A stretch of DNA of 39,736 bases from a phage: the sequence record PZ379179.1; one strand, written 5' to 3'. The position numbers and the translations under genes are program-made. Position 1 is the first letter of the stretch. Each line of letters starts with the position of its first letter. Shown piece after piece: positions 1 through 36,671 of this stretch. A model generated the notes under the pieces. That model was given only the letters and a program-made list of their open reading frames with translations. It made no database searches and had not been told where the DNA came from.

Positions 1-161
1 CCTCAAGTCTCCCCATAGGCCCTCTTTAAGTCAAGACCAAAGGCCCTACCCATAGACCTTCGGTCTAAACTTCAGGTCATTGACTCAAGGTTGACCAAAA
101 GTCATGACGATAGGTCTAGGCTATGGCTTAGGGAAGGACGATAGGTAGGGACTATTGGTCT
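1..161. repeat. Left direct terminal repeat (161 bp)
   Basis: Bases 1-161 are identical to 39576-39736 (CCTCAAGTCTCCCCATAGG...GGGACTATTGGTCT); T7-like genomes carry ~160-bp direct terminal repeats. Confidence 0.9.
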
Positions 162-164
162 GTC

Positions 165-340
165 TTTGAGTCTCTATCTGTATAACCATAAGTCACAACC
201 ATAGGTCACAGCCTACCTCTCACAACCATAAGTCATAACCTACAGTCTCACTAACCTACAGTCTCAACCATAAGACACCAACACCTACAGTCATAGACCT
301 ACAGTTAATAGACACAAGGCTATAGACTTAAGGTCTAAGA
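165..340. repeat. Array of short degenerate direct repeats inside the left end
   Basis: Reiterated units such as AACCATAAGTCA and CCTACAGTC (e.g. 195-310); no coding signal. Comparable to T7 end-proximal short repeats. Confidence 0.5.
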
Positions 341-556
341 CATGTTAGTCAAAGACTATATCCTCTTACACCATGGGGCCGACGATAGCTTAATCAATAT
401 TATTTCGAATTACCTATTGACTATAGGTCCAGACTATGGCCTAATAGCTTCCGTCAACACGACACGGCAACAACCGGATAGTGAAGACGCCGGTCCGGTC
501 CGGTTAAGTAGTCAGCCTGTAAGACATACGAACAACAGGCAACCGACAGAAAGTAG

Positions 557-586
557 TTGACAGGCAGTAACGACTTAAAGTAATAT
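557..586 (+). promoter_or_regulatory. Candidate host sigma70 early promoter (A1-like)
   Basis: TTGACA (557-562), 18-bp spacer, TAATAT (581-586); lies upstream of the first early gene, where T7 has its strong E. coli promoters. Confidence 0.45.
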
Positions 587-736
587 GTACCACATCGAAA
601 CAACGGTGATGACCAACACTGAATGGTCTACCTGAAGTCCTCTGACTGAAGGGAATGCTCTTTAACAATCTGGATAAACTCTTAATGTGCGCCGATAGCG
701 ACTAACTACAGGGCCTTTGAGTCTACATCTGAAGGC

Positions 737-756
737 CCTGACTGATAGTCACTAAC
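737..756 (+). promoter_or_regulatory. Conserved early-region box CCTGACTGATAGTCACTAAC, copy 1
   Basis: 20-nt box also at 1054-1073 and 1782-1801, each preceded by ACTACAGG and 8-29 nt upstream of an early gene start; candidate RNase III processing or regulatory site. Confidence 0.35.
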
Positions 757-772
757 TTAAAGGATGGACACT

Positions 773-1018
773 ATGAAACACTTAAGCACAATCACTAATC
801 GCAATGAAGTATTCGTGAACACTAAAGGTTATGCGTGGATTCAGCTTAAAGAGGTGACAGGAGCGCGTCACCGTGTGGTAGTGCGCAAGGTATCAAGCAA
901 GCAGTTCAGCAACTACAGCGTCGATACTGTGCGTATAGACAACGAGACATACCTGATAGACTCGCAGATAACCGTGAGTCCTACAGTGGGCGTCTCAGCT
1001 CCTTATTTCGCTAACTGA
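773..1018 (+). CDS. Hypothetical early protein, first gene of the genome (81 aa)
   Basis: Track ORF 764..1018; the AGGA overlaps the ATG at 764, so the ATG at 773 (8 nt downstream) is the better start. No recognisable domain. Confidence 0.55.
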   Translation: MKHLSTITNRNEVFVNTKGYAWIQLKEVTGARHRVVVRKVSSKQFSNYSVDTVRIDNETYLIDSQITVSPTVGVSAPYFAN

Positions 1019-1053
1019 GAGTGATTAACTACAGGTCGTTAGACTGATAGCGG

Positions 1054-1073
1054 CCTGACTGATAGTCACTAAC
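1054..1073 (+). promoter_or_regulatory. Conserved early-region box, copy 2
   Basis: Identical 20-mer CCTGACTGATAGTCACTAAC, 29 nt upstream of the Ocr-like gene start. Confidence 0.35.
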
Positions 1074-1101
1074 ACATACTTAACTTTGAGAGGATATAAC
1101 T

Positions 1102-1605
1102 ATGGAACGTAATGCTAACGCATTCTATGAGCTGCTGGCTGCAACCGTTGAGGCATTTATCGAGCGTATTCAGTACGACCACCTGACTCAAGATGACGAC
1201 TACAGCGCTGCGCTGCATGAGGTCGTAGACGGTCAGGTTCCACACTATTACCACGAGATTTTTACGGTGATGGCTGCTGATGGTATAGACAACGAGTTCG
1301 AAGACTCTGGGATGATACCTGAAACCAAGGACGTAACGCGTATCCTACAAGCTCGCATCTATGAGGCACTTTATAACGACGTGTCTAATAGCTTGGATGT
1401 AGTCTGGTTTGAGGATGAAGAGGCAGACGAAGAGGATGAATATTGGGTAGTTGACGCTAAAACAGGCGCAATAATTGTGCAAGCTGTAGCTCTTGAGGTC
1501 GCTACTGCATGTGCCAAGGTCAACTATGTGATAGGTCGCCACCTTCAGGTGGAAGACATCAATGATAACGTAGTGTTTGACCCTGCTGCTGAGGACTGCG
1601 AGTGA
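1102..1605 (+). CDS. ocr: Ocr-like anti-restriction DNA-mimic protein (T7 gp0.3 homolog) with C-terminal extension
   Basis: 167 aa; [43 protein letters not shown] matches recalled T7 Ocr ([43 protein letters not shown]). Acidic run [10 protein letters not shown], then ~50 extra residues absent from the 117-aa T7 protein. GAGAGGA RBS 7 nt upstream. Confidence 0.85.
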   Translation: [167 protein letters not shown]

Positions 1606-1781
1606 TGGTAACTTATGGCCTCTGCCAGCACCACGTCACTAACGCCCGGCTTATGGTCAAGACCGGGCAGTTAGACCACGATTGGGCTATGCGTCTCTTG
1701 AAAGTGGTCTACAGGAGACGCAAGCGTATACACGACAGTTTACACGCTAAGTGACAGACTACAGGTCATCAATGCTGGTGG

Positions 1782-1801
1782 CCTGACTGATAGTCATTAA
1801 C
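1782..1801 (+). promoter_or_regulatory. Conserved early-region box, copy 3 (CCTGACTGATAGTCATTAAC)
   Basis: One mismatch to copies 1 and 2; 8 nt upstream of the ATG at 1809. Confidence 0.35.
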
Positions 1802-1808
1802 AACTGAG

Positions 1809-2045
1809 ATGGAAGATATGAACACAATCACTGGTGCCATAACCAAAGGTTTTCGAGCAATTTTCGGTGAAACGCAAGAAGTATGCACCAATCATAAATT
1901 CGTACTTTCTTGCGTAGCAGGTGACGAGTTTGACGGGTTCGATAAACTGGTGGTTTGCGACCATTGCGGACAAGAGGCTATCCAACACTCAAACGGTAAA
2001 TTTGAATTAATAGACGATAGCCTTACAGAAGGAGACGGCGAGTAA
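1809..2045 (+). CDS. Hypothetical early protein, Cys-containing (78 aa)
   Basis: Track ORF with ATG start; contains CDHCG and other Cys residues (possible metal site). Sits where T7 has genes 0.4-0.6; no similarity recognised. Confidence 0.5.
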   Translation: MEDMNTITGAITKGFRAIFGETQEVCTNHKFVLSCVAGDEFDGFDKLVVCDHCGQEAIQHSNGKFELIDDSLTEGDGE

Positions 2046-2177
2046 CCTAAATAAACAGGAGAGAACCAAATCATAGCTTGACCATAACACTGACGTGATG
2101 GTACTGAGTGATAGACGAGAGGTCATCGACTGATAGGTGGCCTCAAAGATTACCACTTACATTGATAGGATTTAACT

Positions 2178-2282
2178 ATGAGCACTGCAATCATCTGGAC
2201 TATCTCAGGCTTCGTAGCGTGGGGAATGTTTACTCTAGTCTGCAAACTACCGGTCCTTACTCAACTGTTATGGGGCTTATGA
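2178..2282 (+). CDS. Small hydrophobic peptide (34 aa), candidate membrane protein
   Basis: ATG at 2178 with TAGGA RBS 7 nt upstream; MSTAIIWTISGFVAWGMFTLVCKLPVLTQLLWGL is one predicted TM helix. Below the track size cut-off. Confidence 0.35.
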   Translation: MSTAIIWTISGFVAWGMFTLVCKLPVLTQLLWGL

Positions 2283-2482
2283 CTATGGGTCTTGCACTAT
2301 TGATAGCCATAGGCTATGGACTTATCGCCTACGTGCTGGTGAGAGACATCAACAAATCGCGTAAAGTCTACAAATTCAAATATGTACGTCTGGGTAGCTG
2401 GACTGTACGTCAACCTAACGGACGATTCATGCGTAACTTAGCGAACGTCTGGGATATAGCAACACTTGGGAGCAAACTGTAA
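2270..2482 (+). CDS. Small membrane protein (about 65-70 aa), start uncertain
   Basis: The track ORF 2108..2482 opens with GTG and no RBS. In-frame ATGs at 2270, 2279 and 2285 (the last is 3 nt after the stop of the 2178 ORF) precede a hydrophobic segment LALLIAIGYGLIAYVLV. Stop overlaps the next ATG. Confidence 0.35.
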   Translation: MGLMTMGLALLIAIGYGLIAYVLVRDINKSRKVYKFKYVRLGSWTVRQPNGRFMRNLANVWDIATLGSKL

Positions 2483-2808
2483 TGAACAAGTCATACGGGA
2501 TTAATCTGGTACACTCTATGGACGCAGACATGCAAATGTTAAGCCTACTGGCTACCGGGTATCGTCACGGAACGTCAAGTCACTCCGCACGTCAACAGCA
2601 GGAGCGGGACCGGGTACTGCAAGCAAGACTCCGGGCTGAGGGCCATAAGTCCGAACTAATGTGTCTGGCGTATGGTGGACGACCAATCACTGACGATGGT
2701 AAACTTTTAGTCTCAGGCTGGAAGGCGATAGACCAACGGTCAACCATCAAGCACACGACTCATGGTGACTTCAGTCATCTCCACGCTAACCCGCTGATAT
2801 GCAAGTAA
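2482..2808 (+). CDS. Hypothetical early protein (108 aa)
   Basis: ATG overlaps the upstream stop (TAATG), suggesting translational coupling. Last ORF before the RNA polymerase; no recognisable domain and no kinase motifs. Confidence 0.5.
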   Translation: MNKSYGINLVHSMDADMQMLSLLATGYRHGTSSHSARQQQERDRVLQARLRAEGHKSELMCLAYGGRPITDDGKLLVSGWKAIDQRSTIKHTTHGDFSHLHANPLICK

Positions 2809-2813
2809 TTCTG

Positions 2814-2836
2814 ACTTAACTATCACTATAGGACTC
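2814..2836 (+). promoter_or_regulatory. Phage RNAP promoter upstream of the RNAP gene
   Basis: TTAACTATCACTATAGGA matches the genome-wide promoter consensus; predicted +1 G at 2831. Followed by direct repeats AAGTGAAAGAC (x2) before the RNAP start. Confidence 0.6.
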
Positions 2837-2905
2837 AAGGTCTAAGACTCCAAGTGAAAGACCAAAGAGACTTTAAGTGAAAGACTAATAACAAGGACTT
2901 TAAGT

Positions 2906-5587
2906 ATGAGCGTCATCTCTATTGACAAGCACGACTTCTCTGATGTATCGAACGCCATTGAGCCGTTTAACCTACTGGCTGACCACTACGGGCAAGACCT
3001 TGCAGTCAAACAGCTTCAGCTTGAGCACGAGGCATACACTGAAGGCGAGCGACGTTTCATCAAGAACCTTGAGAGACAGACTGAGCGAGGGGAACTGGCA
3101 GACAATCAGGTCGCCAAGCCTTTGATGCAGACTCTGGTCCCTAAGATTGCGCAAGCCGTCAAGGAGTGGCATGAAGGTCCAGACGGGAAGCTGTCAACCT
3201 CTCGTCCGAGCGTAGCGTTCACCATGTTGAGCACTGAAGAGAAGGCCGTAAAGGTCCGCTCTTTGCGCATCTCCTGCGAGTCTGCTGCGGTTATCATACT
3301 GAAGGTCATACTCTCCAAGCTGGTCAAGCCTGAAGGGATACCGATTACACCGATGGCCTCAGCGATAGGTCGCACACTTGAGGACGAAATCCGCTTCGGT
3401 CGCATCCGTGACAAGGAGAAAGAGCACTTCAAGAAGGCGATAGCTGATAACCTGAATAAGCGGGCCGGGGCGTCCTACAAGAAAGCCTACATGCAAGCGG
3501 TCGAGGCATCCATGCTGGAGCAAGGCCAACTGGAAGATGCGTGGGGGACTTGGAGTCCGACCGAGGCTGTCCACGTTGGAATCAAGATGCTGGAGATTGT
3601 CATCCAGTCCACACAACTGGTCGAGCTTAAGCGTTACGGTGCTGGCAATGCAGCGGCTGACGTTGAGATGGTCCACCTGTCAGACTTCTGGGTCAAGAAG
3701 ATGGCACAACGAGGATTCAGCCTTGCGGGTATAGCTCCAGTCTACCAGCCTTGCGTCGTTCCACCTAAGCCGTGGACTGGTGTCGTAGGCGGTGGGTACT
3801 GGGCCAAAGGACGCAGACCATTACCACTGATTCGCTTAGGGTCTAAGTCTGCGGTAGCACGCTACGAAGACGTGTATATGCCTGAAGTCTATGACGCTGT
3901 GAACATCATTCAGAATACACCTTGGAAAGTGAACAAGAAGGTTCTGGAAGTGGTGAACATGGTCGAGAAGCTGAACAACACGCCTATTGATGACATCCCT
4001 CAGATGGAACCGCTGAAGCCTGAGGACTATGCGGGTGAGACTGAAGAAGAACTCAAGGCATGGAAGAAGGCTGCTGCTGGTATCTATCGCCGCGAGAAGG
4101 CCAGACAGTCACGAAGATTGTCACTGAGCTTTATCGTCAACCAAGCGAACAAGTTCTCTCAGTTCAAGGCCATCTGGTTCCCGTATAACATGGACTGGCG
4201 CGGTCGCGTCTACGCTGTGCCGATGTTCAACCCTCAGGGTAACGACATGCAAAAGGGTCTTCTGACTCTGGCAGTCGGTAAGCCTATTGGTGCTGATGGT
4301 TTCAAATGGCTGAAGGTCCACGGTGCAAACTGCGCGGGTGTCGATAAAGTCACCTTCGAGGAGCGTATCAAGTGGGTGGAAGATAACCACGAAAACATCA
4401 TGGCTGCTGCCAAGGCACCGATGGATAGCATTGAGTGGTGGGGCAAGTTAGACTCTCCGTTCTGCTTCCTAGCGTTCTGCTTCGAGTATGCTGGCGTAAT
4501 GCACCACGGCTTGTCTTACTCCTGCTCGCTGCCGATAGCGTTCGATGGGTCCTGCTCTGGGATTCAGCACTTCAGCGCTATGCTTCGCGACCACATCGGT
4601 GGACATGCAGTAAACCTGACGCCATCCGGTAAGGTACAAGACATCTACCGAATTGTGTCTGACCGCATTGAGGAGCAGCTTAAAGTCCTGCTGATTAACG
4701 GTACTGACAACGAGATGGTCACTCACGAGGATAAGAAAACTGGTGAGATTACCGAACGTATCAAGCTGGGGACACGAGAGCTGGCCCGTCAGTGGCTGAC
4801 ATACGGTATGTCACGCAAGGTCACTAAGCGTTCAGTCATGACTCTGGCATACGGGTCGAAAGAGTACGGCTTCGCAGACCAAGTTTACGAGGACATCGTG
4901 ATGCCAGCGATTGACTCAGGGTATGGCGCTATGTTCACCGAGCCAAGCCAAGCGTCTCGATTCATGGCTAAGATGATTTGGGAAGCTGTGAGTGTGACCG
5001 TAGTTGCTGCGGTTGACGCGATGAAGTGGCTTCAAGGTGCTGCCAAGCTGCTGGCTGCTGAAGTGAAGGACAAGAAGACTGGCGAAATCCTGAAGCCATG
5101 CCTTCCGGTACACTGGGTAACACCTGATGGTTTCCCTGTCTGGCAGGAATACCGCAAGAAGGATACCACTCGTCTGAACCTGATGTTCTTAGGGTCATTC
5201 AACCTTCAGCCTACAGTCAACAAAGGAACGAAGAAAGAGCTTGACAAGCACAAGCAGGAGTCAGGCATTAGCCCTAACTTCGTCCACTCACAAGATGGTA
5301 GCCACCTGCGGAAGACTGTAGTCCACACTCACCGCAAGTATGGCGTGATGTCATTCGCAGTGATTCACGATAGCTTCGGGACCATCCCTGCTGACGCTGA
5401 GTATCTGTTCCGTGGTGTCCGTGAGACGATGGTCGAGACATACCGCGATAATGATGTGCTGCTTGACTTCTACGAGCAGTTCGAATACCAGCTTCATGAA
5501 AGTCAGCGCGACAAGTTGCCTGAGCTTCCGAAGAAAGGTAAACTGAATATCGAAGACATCTTGTCTTCAGACTTTGCATTCGCTTAA
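2906..5587 (+). CDS. Single-subunit DNA-directed RNA polymerase (T7 gene 1 homolog)
   Basis: 893 aa; collinear with recalled T7 RNAP, including AFDGSCSGIQHFSAMLRD, VIHDSFGTIPAD and the C-terminal DFAFA. AAGGA RBS 8 nt upstream. Confidence 0.97.
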   Translation: MSVISIDKHDFSDVSNAIEPFNLLADHYGQDLAVKQLQLEHEAYTEGERRFIKNLERQTERGELADNQVAKPLMQTLVPKIAQAVKEWHEGPDGKLSTSRPSVAFTMLSTEEKAVKVRSLRISCESAAVIILKVILSKLVKPEGIPITPMASAIGRTLEDEIRFGRIRDKEKEHFKKAIADNLNKRAGASYKKAYMQAVEASMLEQGQLEDAWGTWSPTEAVHVGIKMLEIVIQSTQLVELKRYGAGNAAADVEMVHLSDFWVKKMAQRGFSLAGIAPVYQPCVVPPKPWTGVVGGGYWAKGRRPLPLIRLGSKSAVARYEDVYMPEVYDAVNIIQNTPWKVNKKVLEVVNMVEKLNNTPIDDIPQMEPLKPEDYAGETEEELKAWKKAAAGIYRREKARQSRRLSLSFIVNQANKFSQFKAIWFPYNMDWRGRVYAVPMFNPQGNDMQKGLLTLAVGKPIGADGFKWLKVHGANCAGVDKVTFEERIKWVEDNHENIMAAAKAPMDSIEWWGKLDSPFCFLAFCFEYAGVMHHGLSYSCSLPIAFDGSCSGIQHFSAMLRDHIGGHAVNLTPSGKVQDIYRIVSDRIEEQLKVLLINGTDNEMVTHEDKKTGEITERIKLGTRELARQWLTYGMSRKVTKRSVMTLAYGSKEYGFADQVYEDIVMPAIDSGYGAMFTEPSQASRFMAKMIWEAVSVTVVAAVDAMKWLQGAAKLLAAEVKDKKTGEILKPCLPVHWVTPDGFPVWQEYRKKDTTRLNLMFLGSFNLQPTVNKGTKKELDKHKQESGISPNFVHSQDGSHLRKTVVHTHRKYGVMSFAVIHDSFGTIPADAEYLFRGVRETMVETYRDNDVLLDFYEQFEYQLHESQRDKLPELPKKGKLNIEDILSSDFAFA

Positions 5588-5602
5588 CAGGAGGAGAAGT
5601 AT

Positions 5603-5833
5603 ATGTCAATGAAACTTGTAGCACACAACAGGACATACAACGATGGGTCGGGACGTTGCCACGTAGAGCTGACTTATAAGGATTTAATCATTCTCCGAGA
5701 CAGATTACAGTCGGGTGTGACTGGGTGGATTCAACCTAACGAGTACAACCTTATAGCTTCGATTGATGAAGTTCTTAACGCGTGGATGGAAGACGAGCGC
5801 ATTCAGTATCCGTCATTCCCTCTAATTAGATAA
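5603..5833 (+). CDS. Hypothetical protein downstream of RNAP (76 aa)
   Basis: ATG with GGAGGAG RBS; no T7 counterpart at this position that I recognise. Confidence 0.55.
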   Translation: MSMKLVAHNRTYNDGSGRCHVELTYKDLIILRDRLQSGVTGWIQPNEYNLIASIDEVLNAWMEDERIQYPSFPLIR

Positions 5834-5843
5834 GGAGAGAGTT

Positions 5844-6059
5844 ATGAAATTTGCACACAAGCATACTGGCGTTAATGGTGGGACTCAAATCGTGACCGTA
5901 ACAGAACACAACGGCAAGGGTCTGGTGAAGACCACGGTCATCCCTACCGAGATGTCCAAGCAGCTTAACATCCCGTTCAAGACTCTTGTATATCTGGTCG
6001 AGTCCAGCCACGAGAAGTACCTGAAGGACGCAGTGTCCAAGCTGGAGCAGGCCAAATGA
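5844..6059 (+). CDS. Hypothetical protein (71 aa)
   Basis: ATG with AAGGAGA RBS; phage-typical codon usage. Confidence 0.55.
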   Translation: MKFAHKHTGVNGGTQIVTVTEHNGKGLVKTTVIPTEMSKQLNIPFKTLVYLVESSHEKYLKDAVSKLEQAK

Positions 6060-6124
6060 CAGACATACAGTTACTGGCCCTGTGGCTGGGAGCACTCGCA
6101 GTATTCACTTTAATCCAACGCAGA

Positions 6125-6147
6125 AGAGGTTAACCCTAAACTATCAC
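6125..6147 (+). promoter_or_regulatory. Phage RNAP promoter (phi1.1-like)
   Basis: CCTAAACTATCACTATAGGA; predicted +1 G at 6142. Confidence 0.7.
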
Positions 6148-6200
6148 TATAGGATTAGACTCAAGGTCATGACTCAAAGTCGTGGCCTTCATGATTAACC
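6144..6200 (+). ncRNA. Candidate RNase III processing hairpin (R1.1-like)
   Basis: GATTAGACTCAAGGTCATGACTCAAAGTCGTGGCCTTCATGATTAACC; related copies at 13375-13417 and 36131-36171. Resembles the T7 R1.1 site as I recall it (ACTCAAGGTCATTCGCAAGAGTGGCCTTTATGATTGACC). Confidence 0.45.
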
Positions 6201-6230
6201 CTAAATAAACACTACTGGAGATTTAACCGT

Positions 6231-6410
6231 ATGTATCAGAACACTATCAACTTCGAGCGCATCCGCGAACGTCAGCAGACTGAAGGTTACATCCCTAAGG
6301 GCCGCAAGCTGAACAAGACTAAACGTGGAGGAGGTATCAAAGGTGCTTTCCGTAACGCTGAAGGTAAAGACTCTATGGTTAACCAAGAGAAATACTTCGT
6401 AGGAGCATAA
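6231..6410 (+). CDS. Gene 1.1-like small basic protein (59 aa)
   Basis: GRKLNKTKR matches recalled T7 gp1.1; below the track size cut-off, found by manual translation. Confidence 0.65.
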   Translation: MYQNTINFERIRERQQTEGYIPKGRKLNKTKRGGGIKGAFRNAEGKDSMVNQEKYFVGA

Positions 6411-6414
6411 CCAA

Positions 6415-6678
6415 ATGGGCCGACTTTATAGTGGCAACCTCAACGATTTCAAAGCAGCGTGTCACAGGCTTTATCAGTTAGACTTCGCTGTCATATCTCA
6501 GGAGTTTCAAGACTATACGTCACGCCAAGAGTGTATGAAACTCAGGGTGGAGGACCGAGCTGGTAACATCTTCGCGCTTGAGACCTTCGCACACTACGAT
6601 GAAGACGTGCTGTATAATACCGCAACCGACTACCTCAACGGTCTCGCTGACCATCTCGACACATGGAGAAAAGAATAA
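6415..6678 (+). CDS. Gene 1.2-like inhibitor of host dGTPase (87 aa)
   Basis: MGRLYSGNLNDFKAA...LRVEDRAGN...HYDEDVLYN closely matches recalled T7 gp1.2 (MGRLYSGNLAAFKAA...LRIEDRSGN...HHDEDVLFN). AGGAG RBS. Confidence 0.85.
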   Translation: MGRLYSGNLNDFKAACHRLYQLDFAVISQEFQDYTSRQECMKLRVEDRAGNIFALETFAHYDEDVLYNTATDYLNGLADHLDTWRKE

Positions 6679-7706
6679 TGACAACTATCAAAACTAACCC
6701 TCACCGCGCTGTAGATTACTCTGAGTCTGGAATTAAGAAGGCACTGGAAGCAGCCGGGTCTCTGGAAGCTGAAGTGAAGTACGATGGTGTGCGCCTGAAC
6801 CTCCTGGTCCTGCGTGAAGGTGAGACCTACTGGCTTAGCCGCGAGTCGAAACCTCTACCAGCCTTGGAGTGGATGAACTCTGAGTTAGGTAATGCGTGGA
6901 CCCAAGCTGACTGGCGATGGTTCCTGCGTCAATCCGGCTACGAAGGTGTGGGCATGATGATTGATGGCGAGGTCATGGTCAAAGGTGTAGACTTCAACAC
7001 CTCCTCAGGTCTCATCCGAACGAAGTGGCTCAAGCCTAACAACGAGGAGTTCGCTGAATACTATTCGCCGGCGACTGGTGGAAAGAAGCTCCCGTTCTGG
7101 GGATCCCGGTCACGACTTCAGGTTGTGGTCTACGGTGTCATTGACATGACAACCATTGCTGACCCGAAAGCCGAAGGTCCTATCCATAGCGTAACCCGCC
7201 TGAAGGCCGAAGCTATCGTCCCTCTTCTCCAGAAATACTTCCCGGAAATCGACTGGGTTCTGTCTGAGAGTCATACAGTGTTCAACCTTGAGTCTCTTCG
7301 TGATTTGTACGAGGAGAAGCGAGCAGATGGACATGAAGGTCTGGTAGTCAAGGACCCACTGGGCAAATACAAGCGTGGTAAGAAGTCTGGTATGTGGAAG
7401 ATGAAGCCGAGTGAAGAGGCAGATGGTCACGTTGTTCGCCCGGTGTGGGGAACAGAAGGCCTAGCCAACGAAGGCATGGTCATCGGCTTTGACGTTATGC
7501 TCGAGAACGGGATGGAGGTCTCCGCAACTAACATTAGTCGCGCCCTTATGTCCGAGTTCACGGAGAACGTTAAGTCAGACCCTGACTACTACAAAGGGTG
7601 GGCTTGCCAGATTACCTACATGGAGGAGACACCAGATGGCTCATTGCGACACCCCTCGTTCTACCAGTGGCGTGGAACTGAGGATAATCCTACAGTCAAG
7701 ATTTAA
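6678..7706 (+). CDS. ATP-dependent DNA ligase (T7 gene 1.3 homolog)
   Basis: Adenylation motif KYDGVR; MTTIKTNP...SYWLSRESK...HEGLVVKDP...KRGKKSGMWKMKP...WACQITYMEETPDGSLRHPSF collinear with T7 ligase. Track ORF begins at 6663; the ATG at 6678 overlaps the gene 1.2 stop. Confidence 0.93.
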   Translation: MTTIKTNPHRAVDYSESGIKKALEAAGSLEAEVKYDGVRLNLLVLREGETYWLSRESKPLPALEWMNSELGNAWTQADWRWFLRQSGYEGVGMMIDGEVMVKGVDFNTSSGLIRTKWLKPNNEEFAEYYSPATGGKKLPFWGSRSRLQVVVYGVIDMTTIADPKAEGPIHSVTRLKAEAIVPLLQKYFPEIDWVLSESHTVFNLESLRDLYEEKRADGHEGLVVKDPLGKYKRGKKSGMWKMKPSEEADGHVVRPVWGTEGLANEGMVIGFDVMLENGMEVSATNISRALMSEFTENVKSDPDYYKGWACQITYMEETPDGSLRHPSFYQWRGTEDNPTVKI

Positions 7707-7707
7707 A

Positions 7708-8118
7708 GTGGACGAAAGGTCGGCCTCCGGGCTGGCACTCCACTCTGGACGAAAGGTAGGAAGTAAGAAGAAGTCCGGCTATTGGACGATAAACGTCAGG
7801 ACACCGTGGGGCCGAAAGCATCTACAGGTTCATAGGGTAATATGGGAGATGACACACGGTCCCATACCAGACGGCATGGAGATTGACCACATTGACCGGA
7901 ACCCTTCTAATAACAGGCTGTCCAACCTGCGACTGGTGACTCACTCCGAGAACAACCAGAACAAAGGACAGATGTCCACCAACACTACCGGAGAACGTCA
8001 CATCTCAAAGGTGAAAGGTCGAGAGCTTTACTGTATCAAGAAGGTGGTCAACGGAGAGCGCTTGGTCCTATATGCCAAGACCATAGCCGAGGCAGTAGCC
8101 TTAAGAGATTCATTATAA
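7708..8118 (+). CDS. HNH homing-type endonuclease (copy A)
   Basis: HNH core [46 protein letters not shown]. The track ORF starts inside the ligase gene; alignment with the paralog at 36668 puts the N-terminus at GTG 7708, directly after the ligase stop. No in-frame ATG is available. Confidence 0.7.
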   Translation: MDERSASGLALHSGRKVGSKKKSGYWTINVRTPWGRKHLQVHRVIWEMTHGPIPDGMEIDHIDRNPSNNRLSNLRLVTHSENNQNKGQMSTNTTGERHISKVKGRELYCIKKVVNGERLVLYAKTIAEAVALRDSL

Positions 8119-13195: not shown

Positions 13196-13374
13196 GGAGG
13201 AGTACATTGCTAAGAAAACTTAAAGCTCGATACCATAGGTTCATGTACAAATGGTGGAGTGATGAAGCAACCTGCCTGTCCAACATTCTGGGAGACCAGA
13301 GGTTCGACTCTAAGGCATGGAAGAAAGCTAACCGGAAGTTTATGTACCACTTCTTGCGTACAGACTTCTAGGTC

Positions 13375-13417
13375 TAGACTCAAGGTCATTCATAGCGAGT
13401 GGCCTTTATGATTAGAC
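13375..13417 (+). ncRNA. Candidate RNase III processing hairpin
   Basis: TAGACTCAAGGTCATTCATAGCGAGTGGCCTTTATGATTAGAC, closely resembling the recalled T7 R1.1 site; lies between the gene 4 and gene 5 homologs. Confidence 0.45.
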
Positions 13418-13435
13418 TAAAGCGGAGGATTAACC

Positions 13436-15607
13436 ATGTTTGACCTTAAGAGTATCTGGGGTTCTGACATCGAGACCAACGGTCTCCTTGATACAGTCTC
13501 CCAGTTTCACTGTGGGGTCCTGATTAACGCCGAGTCGAATGAGACCCTTAAGTATGGGGTAGCTCCGATGGTCGGTATCGTCGGTGGCTTCAAAGAGTAT
13601 GTGCAGAAGGTGGAAGAGATTGCCGCATCACCTGATGGTATGCTGGTATTCCACAACGGTATCAACTATGACGTCCCGGCTATTGACAAGCTGAAGCGTC
13701 TGTACTTCGGGAAACGCTTTAACTTCCCGAAACACAAGATGATTGATACCTTGGTGCTGGGTCGCTTGATGTATCCCAACATTAAGTTCTCAGACATGGG
13801 CGCGGTGAAAGCTGGTCGTCTGCCTCCTAAGATGATGGGACGCCAGTCTCTTGAGGCTTGGGGCTATCGTCTCGGTGAGATGAAAGGTGAGTACAAACAC
13901 GATTACGTTGCCAAATGCAAGGCTGAAGGTATTGAATATAAGGCTGGTGACGAATGGTTGTTCCCATCTCAGGAGATGCTGGACTATAACGTTCAAGACG
14001 TTGTGGTCACACTGGCGTTGTTCAAGAAGTTCCTGACTGACAAGTATTACTTCCAGTCTGAACAGTTCGCTTTCGACCAGATTTATGCGTTGCGTCTGGA
14101 ACATGATGCTGCGTGGACCTGTGCGAAGATGGAACGTAACGGCTATCCGATGAACACCGAGATGGTCGAAGGCTTATATCGTGAACTAACCGTCAAACGT
14201 GCAGAGCTACTGGACAAGCTGCGCTCTACTTTCGGTAGCTGGTATGCACCAAAGGGAGGCAAGGAGTTCTTCAGGCATCCACGGACAGGTAAGGATCTTC
14301 CGAAGTATCCGAGAGTCGTGTATCCCAAGGTCGGTGGCATCTTTAAGAAGCCTAAGAACAAAGCTCAACGCTTAGGTCTTGAACCTTGTGAACGCGATAC
14401 GCGAGACACGATGGAGGGAGCACCATTCACGCCAATCACTTACGTTGAGTTTAATCCGGGAAGCGGAGACCACTTAGCGAAAGTCCTGATGGAGCGTGGC
14501 TGGGAGCCTGTGGACTTTACTGACACCGGGAAACCTGTAGTCGATGACGAGACGTTGGAACACGTTAAGTTACCAGACGCAGAGGCTCAGGCTTGCGTAG
14601 AGCTGGTCCGTGAGTATCTGGTAGTCCAGAAGCGCATCGGTCAGGCGGCTGAAGGTAAGAACGCATGGTTGAAACTTGTAGGTCCAGACGGACGTATGCA
14701 CGGCTCAATAAACCCATGCGGGGCAGTAACCGGACGTGCGACCCATAGTTCACCAAACATGGCTCAGGTCCCGGCTAACGGTGCTCCATATGGTGAGACT
14801 TGCCGTGGTGCTTTCGGTGCAGCGTGGAACAAGAAGGACGGTAAGCCAGACCCTTGGATTCAAGTTGGTGTGGATGCCTCAGGTCTTGAGCTTCGTTGTC
14901 TTGGGAACAGAGCGGCTCCGTTTGATGGTGGTGCATATGCGAAGACTGTGGTAGAAGGTGACATCCACTGGGCCAACGCAGTAAACGCTGGGTTAGCACC
15001 TAACGTCCAACGCGATAAGTCTAACCACGACCATGAGGCTTTCCGTAACAACGCTAAGACGTTCATCTACGCGTTCCTGTATGGTGCAGGGGCCGCTAAG
15101 ATTGGACTGATAGTAGGCGGTGGTAAGAAGGAAGGTTCAGCTCTGATGAAGAAATTCATTGAGGGTACACCAGCCATCAAGGACCTCAGGGAAGCTGTGA
15201 GTAATACGTTAATCTCAGACTCTAAGTGGGTGGACGGAGAGAACATCGTTAAGTGGAAACGCCGTTGGCTGCGTGGACTTGATGGTCGCCGCATACACAT
15301 CCGGTCGCCACACTCAGCACTTAACGCCCTACTTCAGGGTGATGGTGCGGTTGTCTGTAAGCACTGGATGGTACTGACTGAGAAGAAACTTGAAGAGGCT
15401 GGTTACGGTAACGGATGGGACGGCGACTTTGCGCTAATGGCTTGGATTCACGATGAATTGCAGATAGCGTGCCGTACTCAGGAGATAGCAGAAGATGTCG
15501 TCCGTATTGCTCAAGAGGCGATGCGCGAGGTCGGACGCTTCTATAACTTCAAGTGTGAACTTGATACGGAGGGTAAGATTGGACCAACGTGGAAAGAGTG
15601 TCATTGA
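13436..15607 (+). CDS. DNA polymerase (T7 gene 5 homolog, family A)
   Basis: 723 aa; exonuclease and polymerase motifs (DIETNGL, DASGLELRCL, IHDELQ); GCGGAGGAT RBS. Confidence 0.96.
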   Translation: MFDLKSIWGSDIETNGLLDTVSQFHCGVLINAESNETLKYGVAPMVGIVGGFKEYVQKVEEIAASPDGMLVFHNGINYDVPAIDKLKRLYFGKRFNFPKHKMIDTLVLGRLMYPNIKFSDMGAVKAGRLPPKMMGRQSLEAWGYRLGEMKGEYKHDYVAKCKAEGIEYKAGDEWLFPSQEMLDYNVQDVVVTLALFKKFLTDKYYFQSEQFAFDQIYALRLEHDAAWTCAKMERNGYPMNTEMVEGLYRELTVKRAELLDKLRSTFGSWYAPKGGKEFFRHPRTGKDLPKYPRVVYPKVGGIFKKPKNKAQRLGLEPCERDTRDTMEGAPFTPITYVEFNPGSGDHLAKVLMERGWEPVDFTDTGKPVVDDETLEHVKLPDAEAQACVELVREYLVVQKRIGQAAEGKNAWLKLVGPDGRMHGSINPCGAVTGRATHSSPNMAQVPANGAPYGETCRGAFGAAWNKKDGKPDPWIQVGVDASGLELRCLGNRAAPFDGGAYAKTVVEGDIHWANAVNAGLAPNVQRDKSNHDHEAFRNNAKTFIYAFLYGAGAAKIGLIVGGGKKEGSALMKKFIEGTPAIKDLREAVSNTLISDSKWVDGENIVKWKRRWLRGLDGRRIHIRSPHSALNALLQGDGAVVCKHWMVLTEKKLEEAGYGNGWDGDFALMAWIHDELQIACRTQEIAEDVVRIAQEAMREVGRFYNFKCELDTEGKIGPTWKECH

Positions 15608-35673: not shown

Positions 35674-35868
35674 ATGATTGAGTTAGACTTCAAGAATGAG
35701 GTCCTCAAAGCCTCGCCTATCGTCGGGACCGCTGCGGCTGATGGTGCCAGTCGGTTCTTCTTTGGGCTAACGCTCAACGAATGGTTCTACGTCGCTGCTA
35801 TCGCGTACACCGTGGTGCAGATTGGCGTCCTAATTTACAAGACGATTAAGAGCGGAGGTAAGACATGA
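35674..35868 (+). CDS. Class II holin (T7 gp17.5 homolog)
   Basis: 64 aa; FFGLTLNEWFYVAAIAYTVVQIG matches T7 holin FFGLSLNEWFYVAAIAYTVVQIG. Confidence 0.9.
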   Translation: MIELDFKNEVLKASPIVGTAAADGASRFFFGLTLNEWFYVAAIAYTVVQIGVLIYKTIKSGGKT

Positions 35869-36128
35869 CGCAGATGGACTTAGAGAAGTTCCTGTTAATG
35901 CTGGACACAGAACGTGCTAGACTAATGCTGCAAGACCTGCGGGATGACTCTAAGCGTTCGCCCCAGCTCTACAACGCCATTGAGAAGCTACTGGCTCGTC
36001 ACAACTTCGTGCTAAGCAAGGTGTCTGTTGACGAGAAGACGCTCGCTGATATGGAGGCCCTGAACGCAGAGTACGATAAGGTGCTCTCCGCTACGGAAGA
36101 TAATGACACAGGGTATGGTGTTCAATAA
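35865..36128 (+). CDS. Terminase small subunit / DNA maturation protein A (gp18-like)
   Basis: 87 aa ORF between holin and spanin with overlapping start; assigned by position and size. Confidence 0.65.
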   Translation: MTQMDLEKFLLMLDTERARLMLQDLRDDSKRSPQLYNAIEKLLARHNFVLSKVSVDEKTLADMEALNAEYDKVLSATEDNDTGYGVQ

Positions 36129-36130
36129 GT

Positions 36131-36171
36131 GTTAGACTCAAGGTCATCGTCAGGTGGCCTTTATGGTTAAC
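36131..36171 (+). ncRNA. Candidate RNase III processing hairpin (R18.5-like)
   Basis: GTTAGACTCAAGGTCATCGTCAGGTGGCCTTTATGGTTAAC, the third copy of the element at 6144 and 13375; at the position of T7 R18.5. Confidence 0.45.
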
Positions 36172-36224
36172 ACTAACTAGTGGAGGAGACTCTACGTGAA
36201 ATCTGATAAACCGGGAGGGCAACT

Positions 36225-36671
36225 ATGCTCGAATTTTTAAAGAGAGCGGCTCCGTGGTTACTTTCAGCAGTGATATTTGCTGGTGGCTACCACACCGCTA
36301 ACAATAAGTGGGAGGCTAAGGTCAATGCAGAATACACCTCGAATCTTAAGGCATCGGAGGATACAAGACTTGCTGTCCAAGCTGAAGTCAACAAAGTGTC
36401 CAAACGGTTTCAGGACGAAATGTCCTCGCTGGAAGGCAGCACTGATAGGATTATTGCTGACCTTCAGTCTGACAATAAGCGGTTGCGCATCCGAGTCAAA
36501 CCTACGAGTGGAACCACGCAAAGTGACGGTCGATGCGTCATTGATGGTTACGCCGAACTTGACGAACGAGATGCTAAACGTCTTATCGCCATCGGAGTGA
36601 AAGGAGACAAATGGATTAAGGCGCTTCAGGACACTGTGAGAGCCTTGCAGCAAGATAAGGAGGCCCAATGA
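36225..36671 (+). CDS. i-spanin, Rz-like (T7 gp18.5 homolog)
   Basis: 148 aa; MLEFLKRAAPWLL...LEGSTDRIIADLQSDNKRLRIRVK...LDERDAKRLIA...GDKWIKALQDTVRALQ matches T7 gp18.5; N-terminal TM segment. Confidence 0.9.
   Translation: MLEFLKRAAPWLLSAVIFAGGYHTANNKWEAKVNAEYTSNLKASEDTRLAVQAEVNKVSKRFQDEMSSLEGSTDRIIADLQSDNKRLRIRVKPTSGTTQSDGRCVIDGYAELDERDAKRLIAIGVKGDKWIKALQDTVRALQQDKEAQ
36325..36600 (+). CDS. o-spanin, Rz1-like lipoprotein embedded in the +1 frame of the i-spanin gene
   Basis: Track ORF 36277..36600 in an alternative frame inside gp18.5; contains a lipobox-like LTISGC after a hydrophobic stretch LIGLLLTFS. Start uncertain (first ATG at 36325). Confidence 0.45.
   Translation: MQNTPRILRHRRIQDLLSKLKSTKCPNGFRTKCPRWKAALIGLLLTFSLTISGCASESNLRVEPRKVTVDASLMVTPNLTNEMLNVLSPSE

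Follow-up and report, generated by a model that had tools for sequence, protein, structure and literature searches.

Punctuation of transcripts by RNase III has been a textbook feature of T7-group phages since the 1970s and 1980s, and the early signals of T7 are reportedly the R0.3, R0.5, R1, R1.1 and R1.3 of Dunn and Studier's account of 1983. The early precursor of T7, about 7000 nt in length, is cut at five signals by RNase III of Escherichia coli, internal loops in these signals restrict the cleavage to one strand, and the hairpins that are left at the 3′ ends after cleavage stabilise the mRNA (PMC3867540, PMC1540722). Here, we analyse a 20-nt box repeated in the early region of a phage genome, sequence record PZ379179.1, the whole 39,736-nt stretch of which is called the window below. 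Bases 1-3000 of the window share 98.3% identity with Escherichia phage LM33_P1 and match 244 phage records, mostly of Kayfunavirus; by this comparison the window phage is a Kayfunavirus, that is, a K1F-like relative of T7 from a genus whose hosts are E. coli and other enterobacteria, and the gene layout of the window follows that of T7. Very probably, the box is the 3′ strand of an RNase III processing signal of the T7 group.

The repeated box and its fold

The 20-mer CCTGACTGATAGTCACTAAC occurs exactly at 737-756 and 1054-1073 and with one mismatch (C to T) at 1782-1801, and no further match with up to 3 mismatches exists on either strand of the whole window. None was found in 100 dinucleotide-preserving shuffles, i.e., none is expected by chance. 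Upstream of each copy stands the sequence ACTACAGG, with 24, 18 and 16 nt separating its end from the box; measured from start to start, the distances are 32, 26 and 24 nt. When folded as RNA, the box pairs with the sequence around ACTACAGG, which is the matching 5′ strand, and each box is the 3′ strand of a two-stem RNA hairpin with an asymmetric internal loop, not a linear motif. Its 20 nt consist of 4 nt of the upper stem, 5 nt of the loop, 8 nt of the lower stem and a tail of 3 nt, and read CCUG for the upper-stem base, ACU↓GA for the loop (the arrow, here and below, marks the predicted scissile bond), UAGUCACU for the lower stem and AAC for the tail, and the opposite side of the loop and the base of the upper stem are supplied by ACUACAGG. 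The lower stem has 8 bp, GUGAUUA/UAGUCAC(U), the internal loop has ACUA on its 5′ side and ACUGA on its 3′ side, and the upper stem has 10-12 bp, of which the base, CAGG/CCUG, is conserved while the distal part varies between the copies together with the apical loop. In total, the helix amounts to about 20 bp per site.

To compare these elements with the described ones, a covariance model, model R1, was made from 13 aligned RNase III sites of T3, T7 and phiYeO3-12, none of them taken from the window. In the records of T3 and phiYeO3-12 the sites appear as stem_loop features with the label 'RNase III recognition site', and these stem_loops are the documented anchor of the training. The T7 records NC_001604 and V01146 as retrieved list no RNase III features, and for R0.3, R0.5, R1, R1.1 and R1.3 of T7 we used the coordinates reportedly given by Dunn and Studier in 1983. 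In the 13 training sites 95% of the cells are paired, compared with at most 47% in slid registers. On T7 itself the model gives 8 hits at E<=0.05, seven of which are the training sites and the eighth of which is the held-out R6.5; by their coordinates, these are presumably the known T7 sites. A search of the window with filters off gave 7 hits, every one of them on the + strand, with E values from 2.8e-13 to 1.3e-4, and the next best hit has an E value of 0.22. The seven sites, with their covariance-model scores in bits, are the following.

699-757, + strand: S1, R0.3-like leader hairpin; 27.5 bits, E 8.8e-5; ACTACAGG at 705-712, upper stem and loop at 709-740, box at 737-756, predicted cut after U743
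1022-1074, + strand: S2, hairpin upstream of ocr; 37.4 bits, E 1.3e-7; ACTACAGG at 1028-1035, box at 1054-1073, predicted cut after U1060
1752-1802, + strand: S3, hairpin; 37.5 bits, E 1.2e-7; ACTACAGG at 1758-1765, box at 1782-1801 (1 mismatch), predicted cut after U1788
2109-2161, + strand: S4, degenerate fourth copy; 26.9 bits, E 1.3e-4; GAGAGG...CCUCAAA↓GAUUACCAC, predicted cut after A2147
6153-6206, + strand: S5, R1.1-like; 39 bits, E 4.7e-8; classical CCUUCAU↓GAUUAAC, predicted cut after 6192
13374-13423, + strand: S6, R4.7-like; 45.4 bits, E 6.9e-10; predicted cut after 13409
36130-36178, + strand: S7, R18.5-like; 57.3 bits, E 2.8e-13; predicted cut after 36164

All seven lie between open reading frames (ORFs) and in the transcribed direction. 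S1 belongs to the leader, where a host promoter at 557-586 precedes it, S2 precedes the anti-restriction gene ocr, and the 5′ strand of the lower stem of S3 overlaps the stop codon of ORF 1602-1754. S5 begins at the last base of a phage promoter match at 6138-6153 and precedes a gene 1.1-like ORF at 6231-6410, S6 follows the primase/helicase region and stands just before the DNA polymerase ORF 13436-15607, and S7 has the small terminase ORF 35865-36128 on its upstream side and the Rz-like ORF 36225-36671 on its downstream side, as judged from the ORFs and the annotation of LM33_P1. An earlier note on this DNA, written from the letters alone, had described perfect or near-perfect copies of the box at the three positions (which is borne out, with 0, 0 and 1 mismatches), a partner sequence 20-30 nt upstream (which is roughly right) and a degenerate fourth copy near 2100-2145, which proves to be real, since a model trained only on sites of the T3/T7 group finds it at 2109-2161. 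The extent of 700-1801 plus the fourth copy was drawn too narrowly, as the same family is also present at 6153-6206, 13374-13423 and 36130-36178. A poor fit to T7 sites would have spoken against the processing sites proposed there; the elements instead give significant scores against a model of T3, T7 and phiYeO3-12 sites only.

The fold is supported by more than the model. From the seven window sites only, RNAalifold derives a lower stem of 8 bp, an internal loop of 4/5 nt and an upper stem of 10 bp, with compensatory changes at 10 of the 18 pairs; the 8-bp and 10-bp stems of this consensus make up a hairpin of about two helical turns, and the 4/5-nt loop occupies the same alignment columns as the loops of T3 and T7. 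Thus, the RNA folding that had been suggested as a check did find a conserved secondary structure, and compensatory changes support it. Folded as single sequences, S1, S2 and S4 have minimum free energies of -25.6 kcal/mol (z -4.4), -23.8 kcal/mol (z -4.0) and -21 kcal/mol (z -2.1), respectively. The most conserved part of the element is the internal loop with the sequence 3′ to it.

The likeness to the described sites goes down to the letters. The sites of T7, T3 and phiYeO3-12 likewise fold into two stems with an asymmetric internal loop between them, their intercistronic positions, both along the early transcript and behind phage promoters, are those of the window sites, and the blocks AC(U)NNAGGUC...GGCCUNNNU↓GAUNNUCAC are common to them and the window. 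R0.5 of T7 aligns with the window elements as GAUAGACUCAAGGUC..GGCCUUUAU↓GAUUAUCACUUUAC (in the site table, GAUAGACUCAAGGUCGCUC..GAGUGGCCUUUAU↓GAUUAUCACUUUAC) and R1 of T7 and T3 as UUACAGGUCAUC..GGUGGCCUGAAU (for T7 in the site table, CUUACAGGUCAUC..GGUGGCCUGAAU↓AGG), to be compared with GACAGACUACAGGUCAUC..GGUGGCCUGACUGAUAGUCAUUAAC of S3 and GAUAGACGAGAGGUCAUC..GGUGGCCUCAAAGAUUACCACUUAC of S4. S4 is nearest to R0.5 of T7, S1-S3 share the ACAGG/CCUGA closing pair with R1 of T7 and T3, and S5, S6 and S7 are placed as R1.1, R4.7 and R18.5 of T7. Two differences concern the box itself: the three boxed sites are identical over 20 nt (with one mismatch in S3) while the T7 sites differ from one another, and they carry a genus-specific 3′ strand, CCUGA(C)UGAU.

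Two side observations on the box may be recorded here. The 9-mer GACTGATAG has 7 copies in the window against 0.49 expected, and five of these are in the four early sites (740-748, 1042-1050, 1057-1065, 1785-1793 and 2128-2136), of which the boxes account for three and the apical regions of S2 and S4 for the other two; such an apical repeat of the box core may represent a loop motif or a remnant of nested recombination. Besides, the box at 737-756 has stop codons in all three frames (TGA at 739-741, TGA-TAG at 743-748 and TAA at 753-755), which by a rough estimate occurs in about 1.6% of random 20-mers and is possibly incidental.

The sites in related phages

Conservation was followed in 80 related loci that were found via the RNA polymerase gene, 22 of them Kayfunavirus-like and 58 from other Studiervirinae. 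This set replaced an exact 15-mer scan of IMG/VR, the 105 stretches of which, to judge by the sizes and sources of their contigs, seem for the most part to be chance matches in unrelated contigs. The 22 Kayfunavirus-like loci contain 62 hits and the other 58 loci contain 161, and all 223 of 223 hits are on the coding strand. Among the Kayfunavirus-like hits (56 distinct sites of 62), 94.8% of the cells are paired compared with at most 53% in slid registers, and the covariation score of these sites was reached by 0 of 500 shuffles. The box family is thus conserved in close relatives, where the earlier note had proposed to search for it.

The pair next to the internal loop is not constant: in the Kayfunavirus-like sites it is A-U in 22, C-G in 19 and G-C in 14 cases. 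It is because of this variation that the box reads CCUG where T7 reads CCUU. In contrast to this position, the A-U pair adjacent to it is invariant, in 56 of 56 Kayfunavirus-like sites and 13 of 13 training sites of the T3/T7 group. It has been reported that GC or CG at position 2 of the proximal box blocks binding of RNase III (PMC1540722). We infer that the invariant A-U pair corresponds to this position 2, the numbering being deduced from the U-C pair of R1.1 at position 4 (PMC1540722), and at the pair so assigned the inhibitory GC or CG is absent from all 56 and all 13 sites.

Nine of the 22 Kayfunavirus-like loci have S1-type sites, nine sites altogether, and in all of them the 20-nt box is unchanged while the apical part varies. 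The S1-type site of one locus (L130) is lengthened apically by about 23 nt of inserted sequence, and that of another (L124) keeps the box intact though its RNA polymerase is 79% identical and the flanks of the site are about 70% identical. The form CCUGA(N)UGAU accounts for 22 of the 62 Kayfunavirus-like hits and for 0 of 150 hits in other Studiervirinae. In K11/KP32-like phages, represented by IMG/VR loci with an RNA polymerase about 59% identical, the early sites, which are predicted too, read AACGACAGGUCAUC..GGUGGCCUGAAAGAUAACCACUAAC, with the same C-G closing pair and the CACUAAC tail, and their loop is GAAAGAU, not GACUGAU.

Repeats, fold, covariation, homology to the sites of T3 and T7, strand specificity and conservation are all seen directly in these sequences. 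K1F, EcoDS1, LM33_P1 and Peacock all carry the sites, and in none of the four Kayfunavirus records inspected, which are those of the same four phages, are they annotated. Nor did any Rfam covariance model match at E<=1 in 1-8000, so that no Rfam model recognises these sites by that search. The boxed sites belong to a long-known family and depart from it only in the genus-specific loop sequence and the missing annotation.

Early genes and predicted processing of their transcript

The early genes that the sites would separate, with the host promoter in front of them and the RNA polymerase gene behind them, are as follows.

557-586, + strand: strong sigma-70-type host promoter, TTGACA-18-TAATAT, 10/12 match to the consensus
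773-1018 (first ATG at 764), + strand: early ORF of phrog_10124, function unassigned; between S1 and S2, predicted to be the first cistron released
1102-1605, + strand: ocr-like anti-restriction gene (gene 0.3); Pfam PF08684, E 7e-28; phrog_2568
1602-1754, + strand: ORF of phrog_5058, which with ocr fills the segment S2-S3
1818-2045 (first ATG at 1809), + strand: early ORF of phrog_32657, function unassigned; segment S3-S4
2906-5587: single-subunit RNA polymerase gene, an intact ORF of 893 amino acids

Three boxes do precede early genes, not the first three as had been described: they stand before three of the first four ORFs, and ORF 1602-1754, which overlaps the stop codon of ocr, is without a box of its own. 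ORF 1818-2045 is absent from K1F. The distance from box to first ATG is 7, 28 and 7 nt. The start codons are nevertheless likely to be 773, 1102 and 1818, because the PHROG alignments of the ORFs beginning at 764 and 1809 start at residue 4 and because the Shine-Dalgarno motifs AAGGA and GGAAGA, read by eye, fit the second ATGs; the spacing from box to start would then be 16, 28 and 16 nt. Thus, the spacing is variable as had been noted, and it is the figures of 8-29 nt that do not hold. In the leader of ocr, TTAACTTTG at 1079-1087 resembles UUAACUUUA, which we take to be the 'epsilon' translational enhancer of T7 gene 10. For the equivalent leader, the EcoDS1 record annotates three promoters of host RNA polymerase. 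The region 2046-2905, between ocr and gene 1, has only small ORFs (phrog_2385 and phrog_7066).

How would such a transcript be processed? Transcription through the sites, their cleavage, the exact position of the cut and effects on stability and translation are modelled here on T7. Host RNA polymerase would start at the leader promoter or promoters, such as that at 557-586, and produce the early region with S1-S4 as one polycistronic RNA, which would fold into a hairpin at each intercistronic site. RNase III of the host would then cut once, on the 3′ side of the internal loop; homology to CCUUUAU↓GAU of T7 puts the probable cut in CCUGACU↓GAUAGUCAC, after 743, 1060 and 1788, and homology likewise predicts cuts after 2147, 6192, 13409 and 36164 at S4-S7. 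The upstream mRNA would retain the hairpin at its 3′ end and gain protection from exonucleases, and the downstream mRNA would begin with GAUAGUCACUAAC, or with GAUUACCACUUAC after S4, and have a 5′ leader of 29-41 nt before the start codon. The RNAs so released would carry ORF 773-1018, ocr together with ORF 1602-1754, ORF 1818-2045, and everything from S4 onwards. The suspicion of the earlier note that the boxes are RNase III sites separating early cistrons, as R0.3, R0.5 and R1 do in T7, is supported at the level of sequence, because the scores with the T3/T7 model, the two-stem fold with its compensatory changes, the intercistronic positions on the transcribed strand and the conservation in relatives all agree with it.

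It is to be noted that several points weigh against RNase III processing at the boxed sites. Comparison of the early ORFs with PHROG and Pfam revealed nothing homologous to the gene 0.7 protein kinase of T7. In T7 this kinase stimulates RNase III, and processing here would have to rely on the unstimulated enzyme. Literature searches, including full text, returned no RNase III cleavage data for K1F or Kayfunavirus, and S3 by itself gives a fold just slightly better than those of its shuffled versions (z -1.5). Moreover, the three boxed sites have C-G, not A-U, as the pair that borders the loop; binding of RNase III to the minimal substrate uR1.1 is weakened by substitutions at positions 1-3 of the proximal box (PMC1540722), and the boxed sites might be cut less efficiently, given this C-G pair. 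The same pair is present in R1 of both T7 and T3. Lastly, the identity over 20 nt exceeds what recognition by RNase III needs, so something else also maintains it, perhaps recent duplication or recombination, or a function of the 5′ leader after processing.

Differences from T7 also exist downstream. Here, no gene 0.7 kinase was found, cleavage is only predicted, and neither model R1 nor the fold gave a convincing R1 site before the RNA polymerase gene. The sequence ACTCAAGGTCT...AGACC at 2833-2869 was tried as an R1-like site and is not counted, with a z of -0.7 and no model hit. The same segment, in which ACTCAAGGTCTAAGAC...AGACC comes just after a promoter at 2817-2832, resembles the 5′ half of an RNase III motif. 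It may be a decayed R1 site, so that processing may leave the polymerase mRNA joined to the upstream ORFs. The promoter at 2817-2832 matches the K1F-type phage promoter TAACTATCACTATAGG perfectly and immediately precedes the gene of the phage RNA polymerase, and it would permit autogenous transcription of gene 1. We know of no phage promoter at this position in T7. For the genus, a phage promoter before the polymerase gene is already known, since the EcoDS1 record annotates the equivalent one as 'phi'. As to annotation, the LM33_P1 RefSeq record (L192) splits the RNA polymerase gene at 2925-5606 into two coding sequences, 2925-4892 and 4920-5606, several records label the T7-type polymerase 'N4-like RNA polymerase', and one labels ocr 'protein kinase'; the split and both labels look like annotation errors.

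Alternative explanations and possible cassette junctions

Could the hairpins be real and yet act without RNase III, as 3′ stabilisers, as pause or attenuation signals, or as targets of another nuclease? They are stable and stand at the 3′ ends of cistrons, cleavage at them is a prediction, and the C-G pair adjacent to the loop departs from the binding optimum of RNase III (PMC1540722). However, no T run lies behind any of them and no terminator is found at the boxes, and the best-conserved part, the internal loop with its 3′ sequence, fits a cleavage site better than a plain stabiliser. The C-G variant, too, is common to R1 of T7 and T3, and R1 is reportedly cut in vivo according to Dunn and Studier's work of 1983. 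We regard this explanation as very improbable.

Another explanation is that the 20-nt identity is mainly a trace of duplication or recombination. Gene cassettes would then come and go by crossover between sites, the single copies would not be selected separately, and the element would be a recombination linker in the first place and a processing site in the second. Comparison of genomes offers three cases that suit it. EcoDS1 (L193, 896-1006) has one hybrid site, composed of the S1 hairpin, the box and then the S2 leader into ocr, and is without window bases 757-1053; Peacock (L194, 1010-1470) has an extra ORF between two copies of S2; and in K1F (L002, 1755-1870) S3 is missing together with ORF 1818-2045 (window 1785-2103). 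Furthermore, when 24 relatives were compared over 600-2850, 61 of 165 homology endpoints fell within 10 nt of the four sites versus 21.7 expected, although the relatives are not phylogenetically independent and the BLAST endpoints are approximate. Other breakpoints fall elsewhere, e.g., inside ocr and at 2280-2640, and insertions and deletions survive in intergenic space anyway. On the other hand, a box that stays unchanged where its flanks are about 70% identical indicates purifying selection, and T7 and T3 have the same family, with a known function. Such a history thus complements processing by RNase III and does not replace it, and as the principal account of the box it is still less probable than hairpins acting without RNase III.

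Least probable of all is that the box is a DNA operator at which a regulator of phage or host controls each early gene: an exact 20-mer repeated before genes and a small inverted repeat inside it, GACT-GAT-AGTC, would be in keeping with an operator, but the inverted repeat is only 4+4 bp, the 223 family members in 80 relatives and the 7 in the window are all on the transcribed strand, the box covaries with its upstream partner as RNA base pairs and is homologous to T7/T3 sites that act as RNA, and to our knowledge the T7 group has no early repressor. The binding site for a regulator, which the earlier note had offered as its second choice, is therefore left without support, with a signal that is strand-specific and covaries as RNA. 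Other identities of the box were tried and rejected. A scan of 1-8000 found no sigma-70 promoter overlapping it, the nearest being those at 557-586 and a weak one at 765-792, and the earlier judgement that the box fits such a promoter badly was right. The 11 matches to TAACTATCACTATAGG with up to 3 mismatches in the whole window, all on the + strand, include none at the box, which shares only TCACTA with this K1F-type phage promoter. Neither is it an intrinsic terminator, as the scan found no terminator-like site at a box or in its vicinity, and no T run follows.

With RNase III processing kept as the preferred reading, the genome comparisons suggest that RNase III-type sites also act as cassette junctions, which is a lead and not a result, and which may explain the 20-nt identity in part. 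One might go further and suppose that the hairpins are at the same time portable recombination linkers, where crossovers in the box and its partner arm add, delete and swap single early-gene cassettes from one Kayfunavirus genome to another, ocr-type anti-defence genes among them; we hold this possible, though somewhat short of probable. The nearest described counterparts are the PeSLs (promoter-early stem-loops) of T4-type phages (Arbiol et al., 2010, PMC2839356), which likewise are short conserved regulatory motifs repeated between small non-essential early genes. Gains and losses of genes among close relatives have their breakpoints at PeSLs, as may be the case at the sites here. A PeSL is composed of a sigma-70 promoter and a terminator (PMC2839356), whereas the sites here are RNA processing hairpins with neither, and unlike for PeSLs, recombination between them is deduced from three comparisons, with no mini-circles known. 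If true, such linkers would be a T7-group counterpart of the PeSL shuffling in T4-type phages and would explain an identity beyond the needs of RNase III.

What do the sites mean for the phages that carry them? If processed as predicted, they would define the real early mRNAs with their 5′ leaders and stabilising 3′ hairpins, and they fill a gap in annotation, which should be useful for those who engineer K1F-type phages or use their parts. The conceptual gain is small, and wider interest lies only in the hint that early anti-defence cassettes may be shuffled at these sites.

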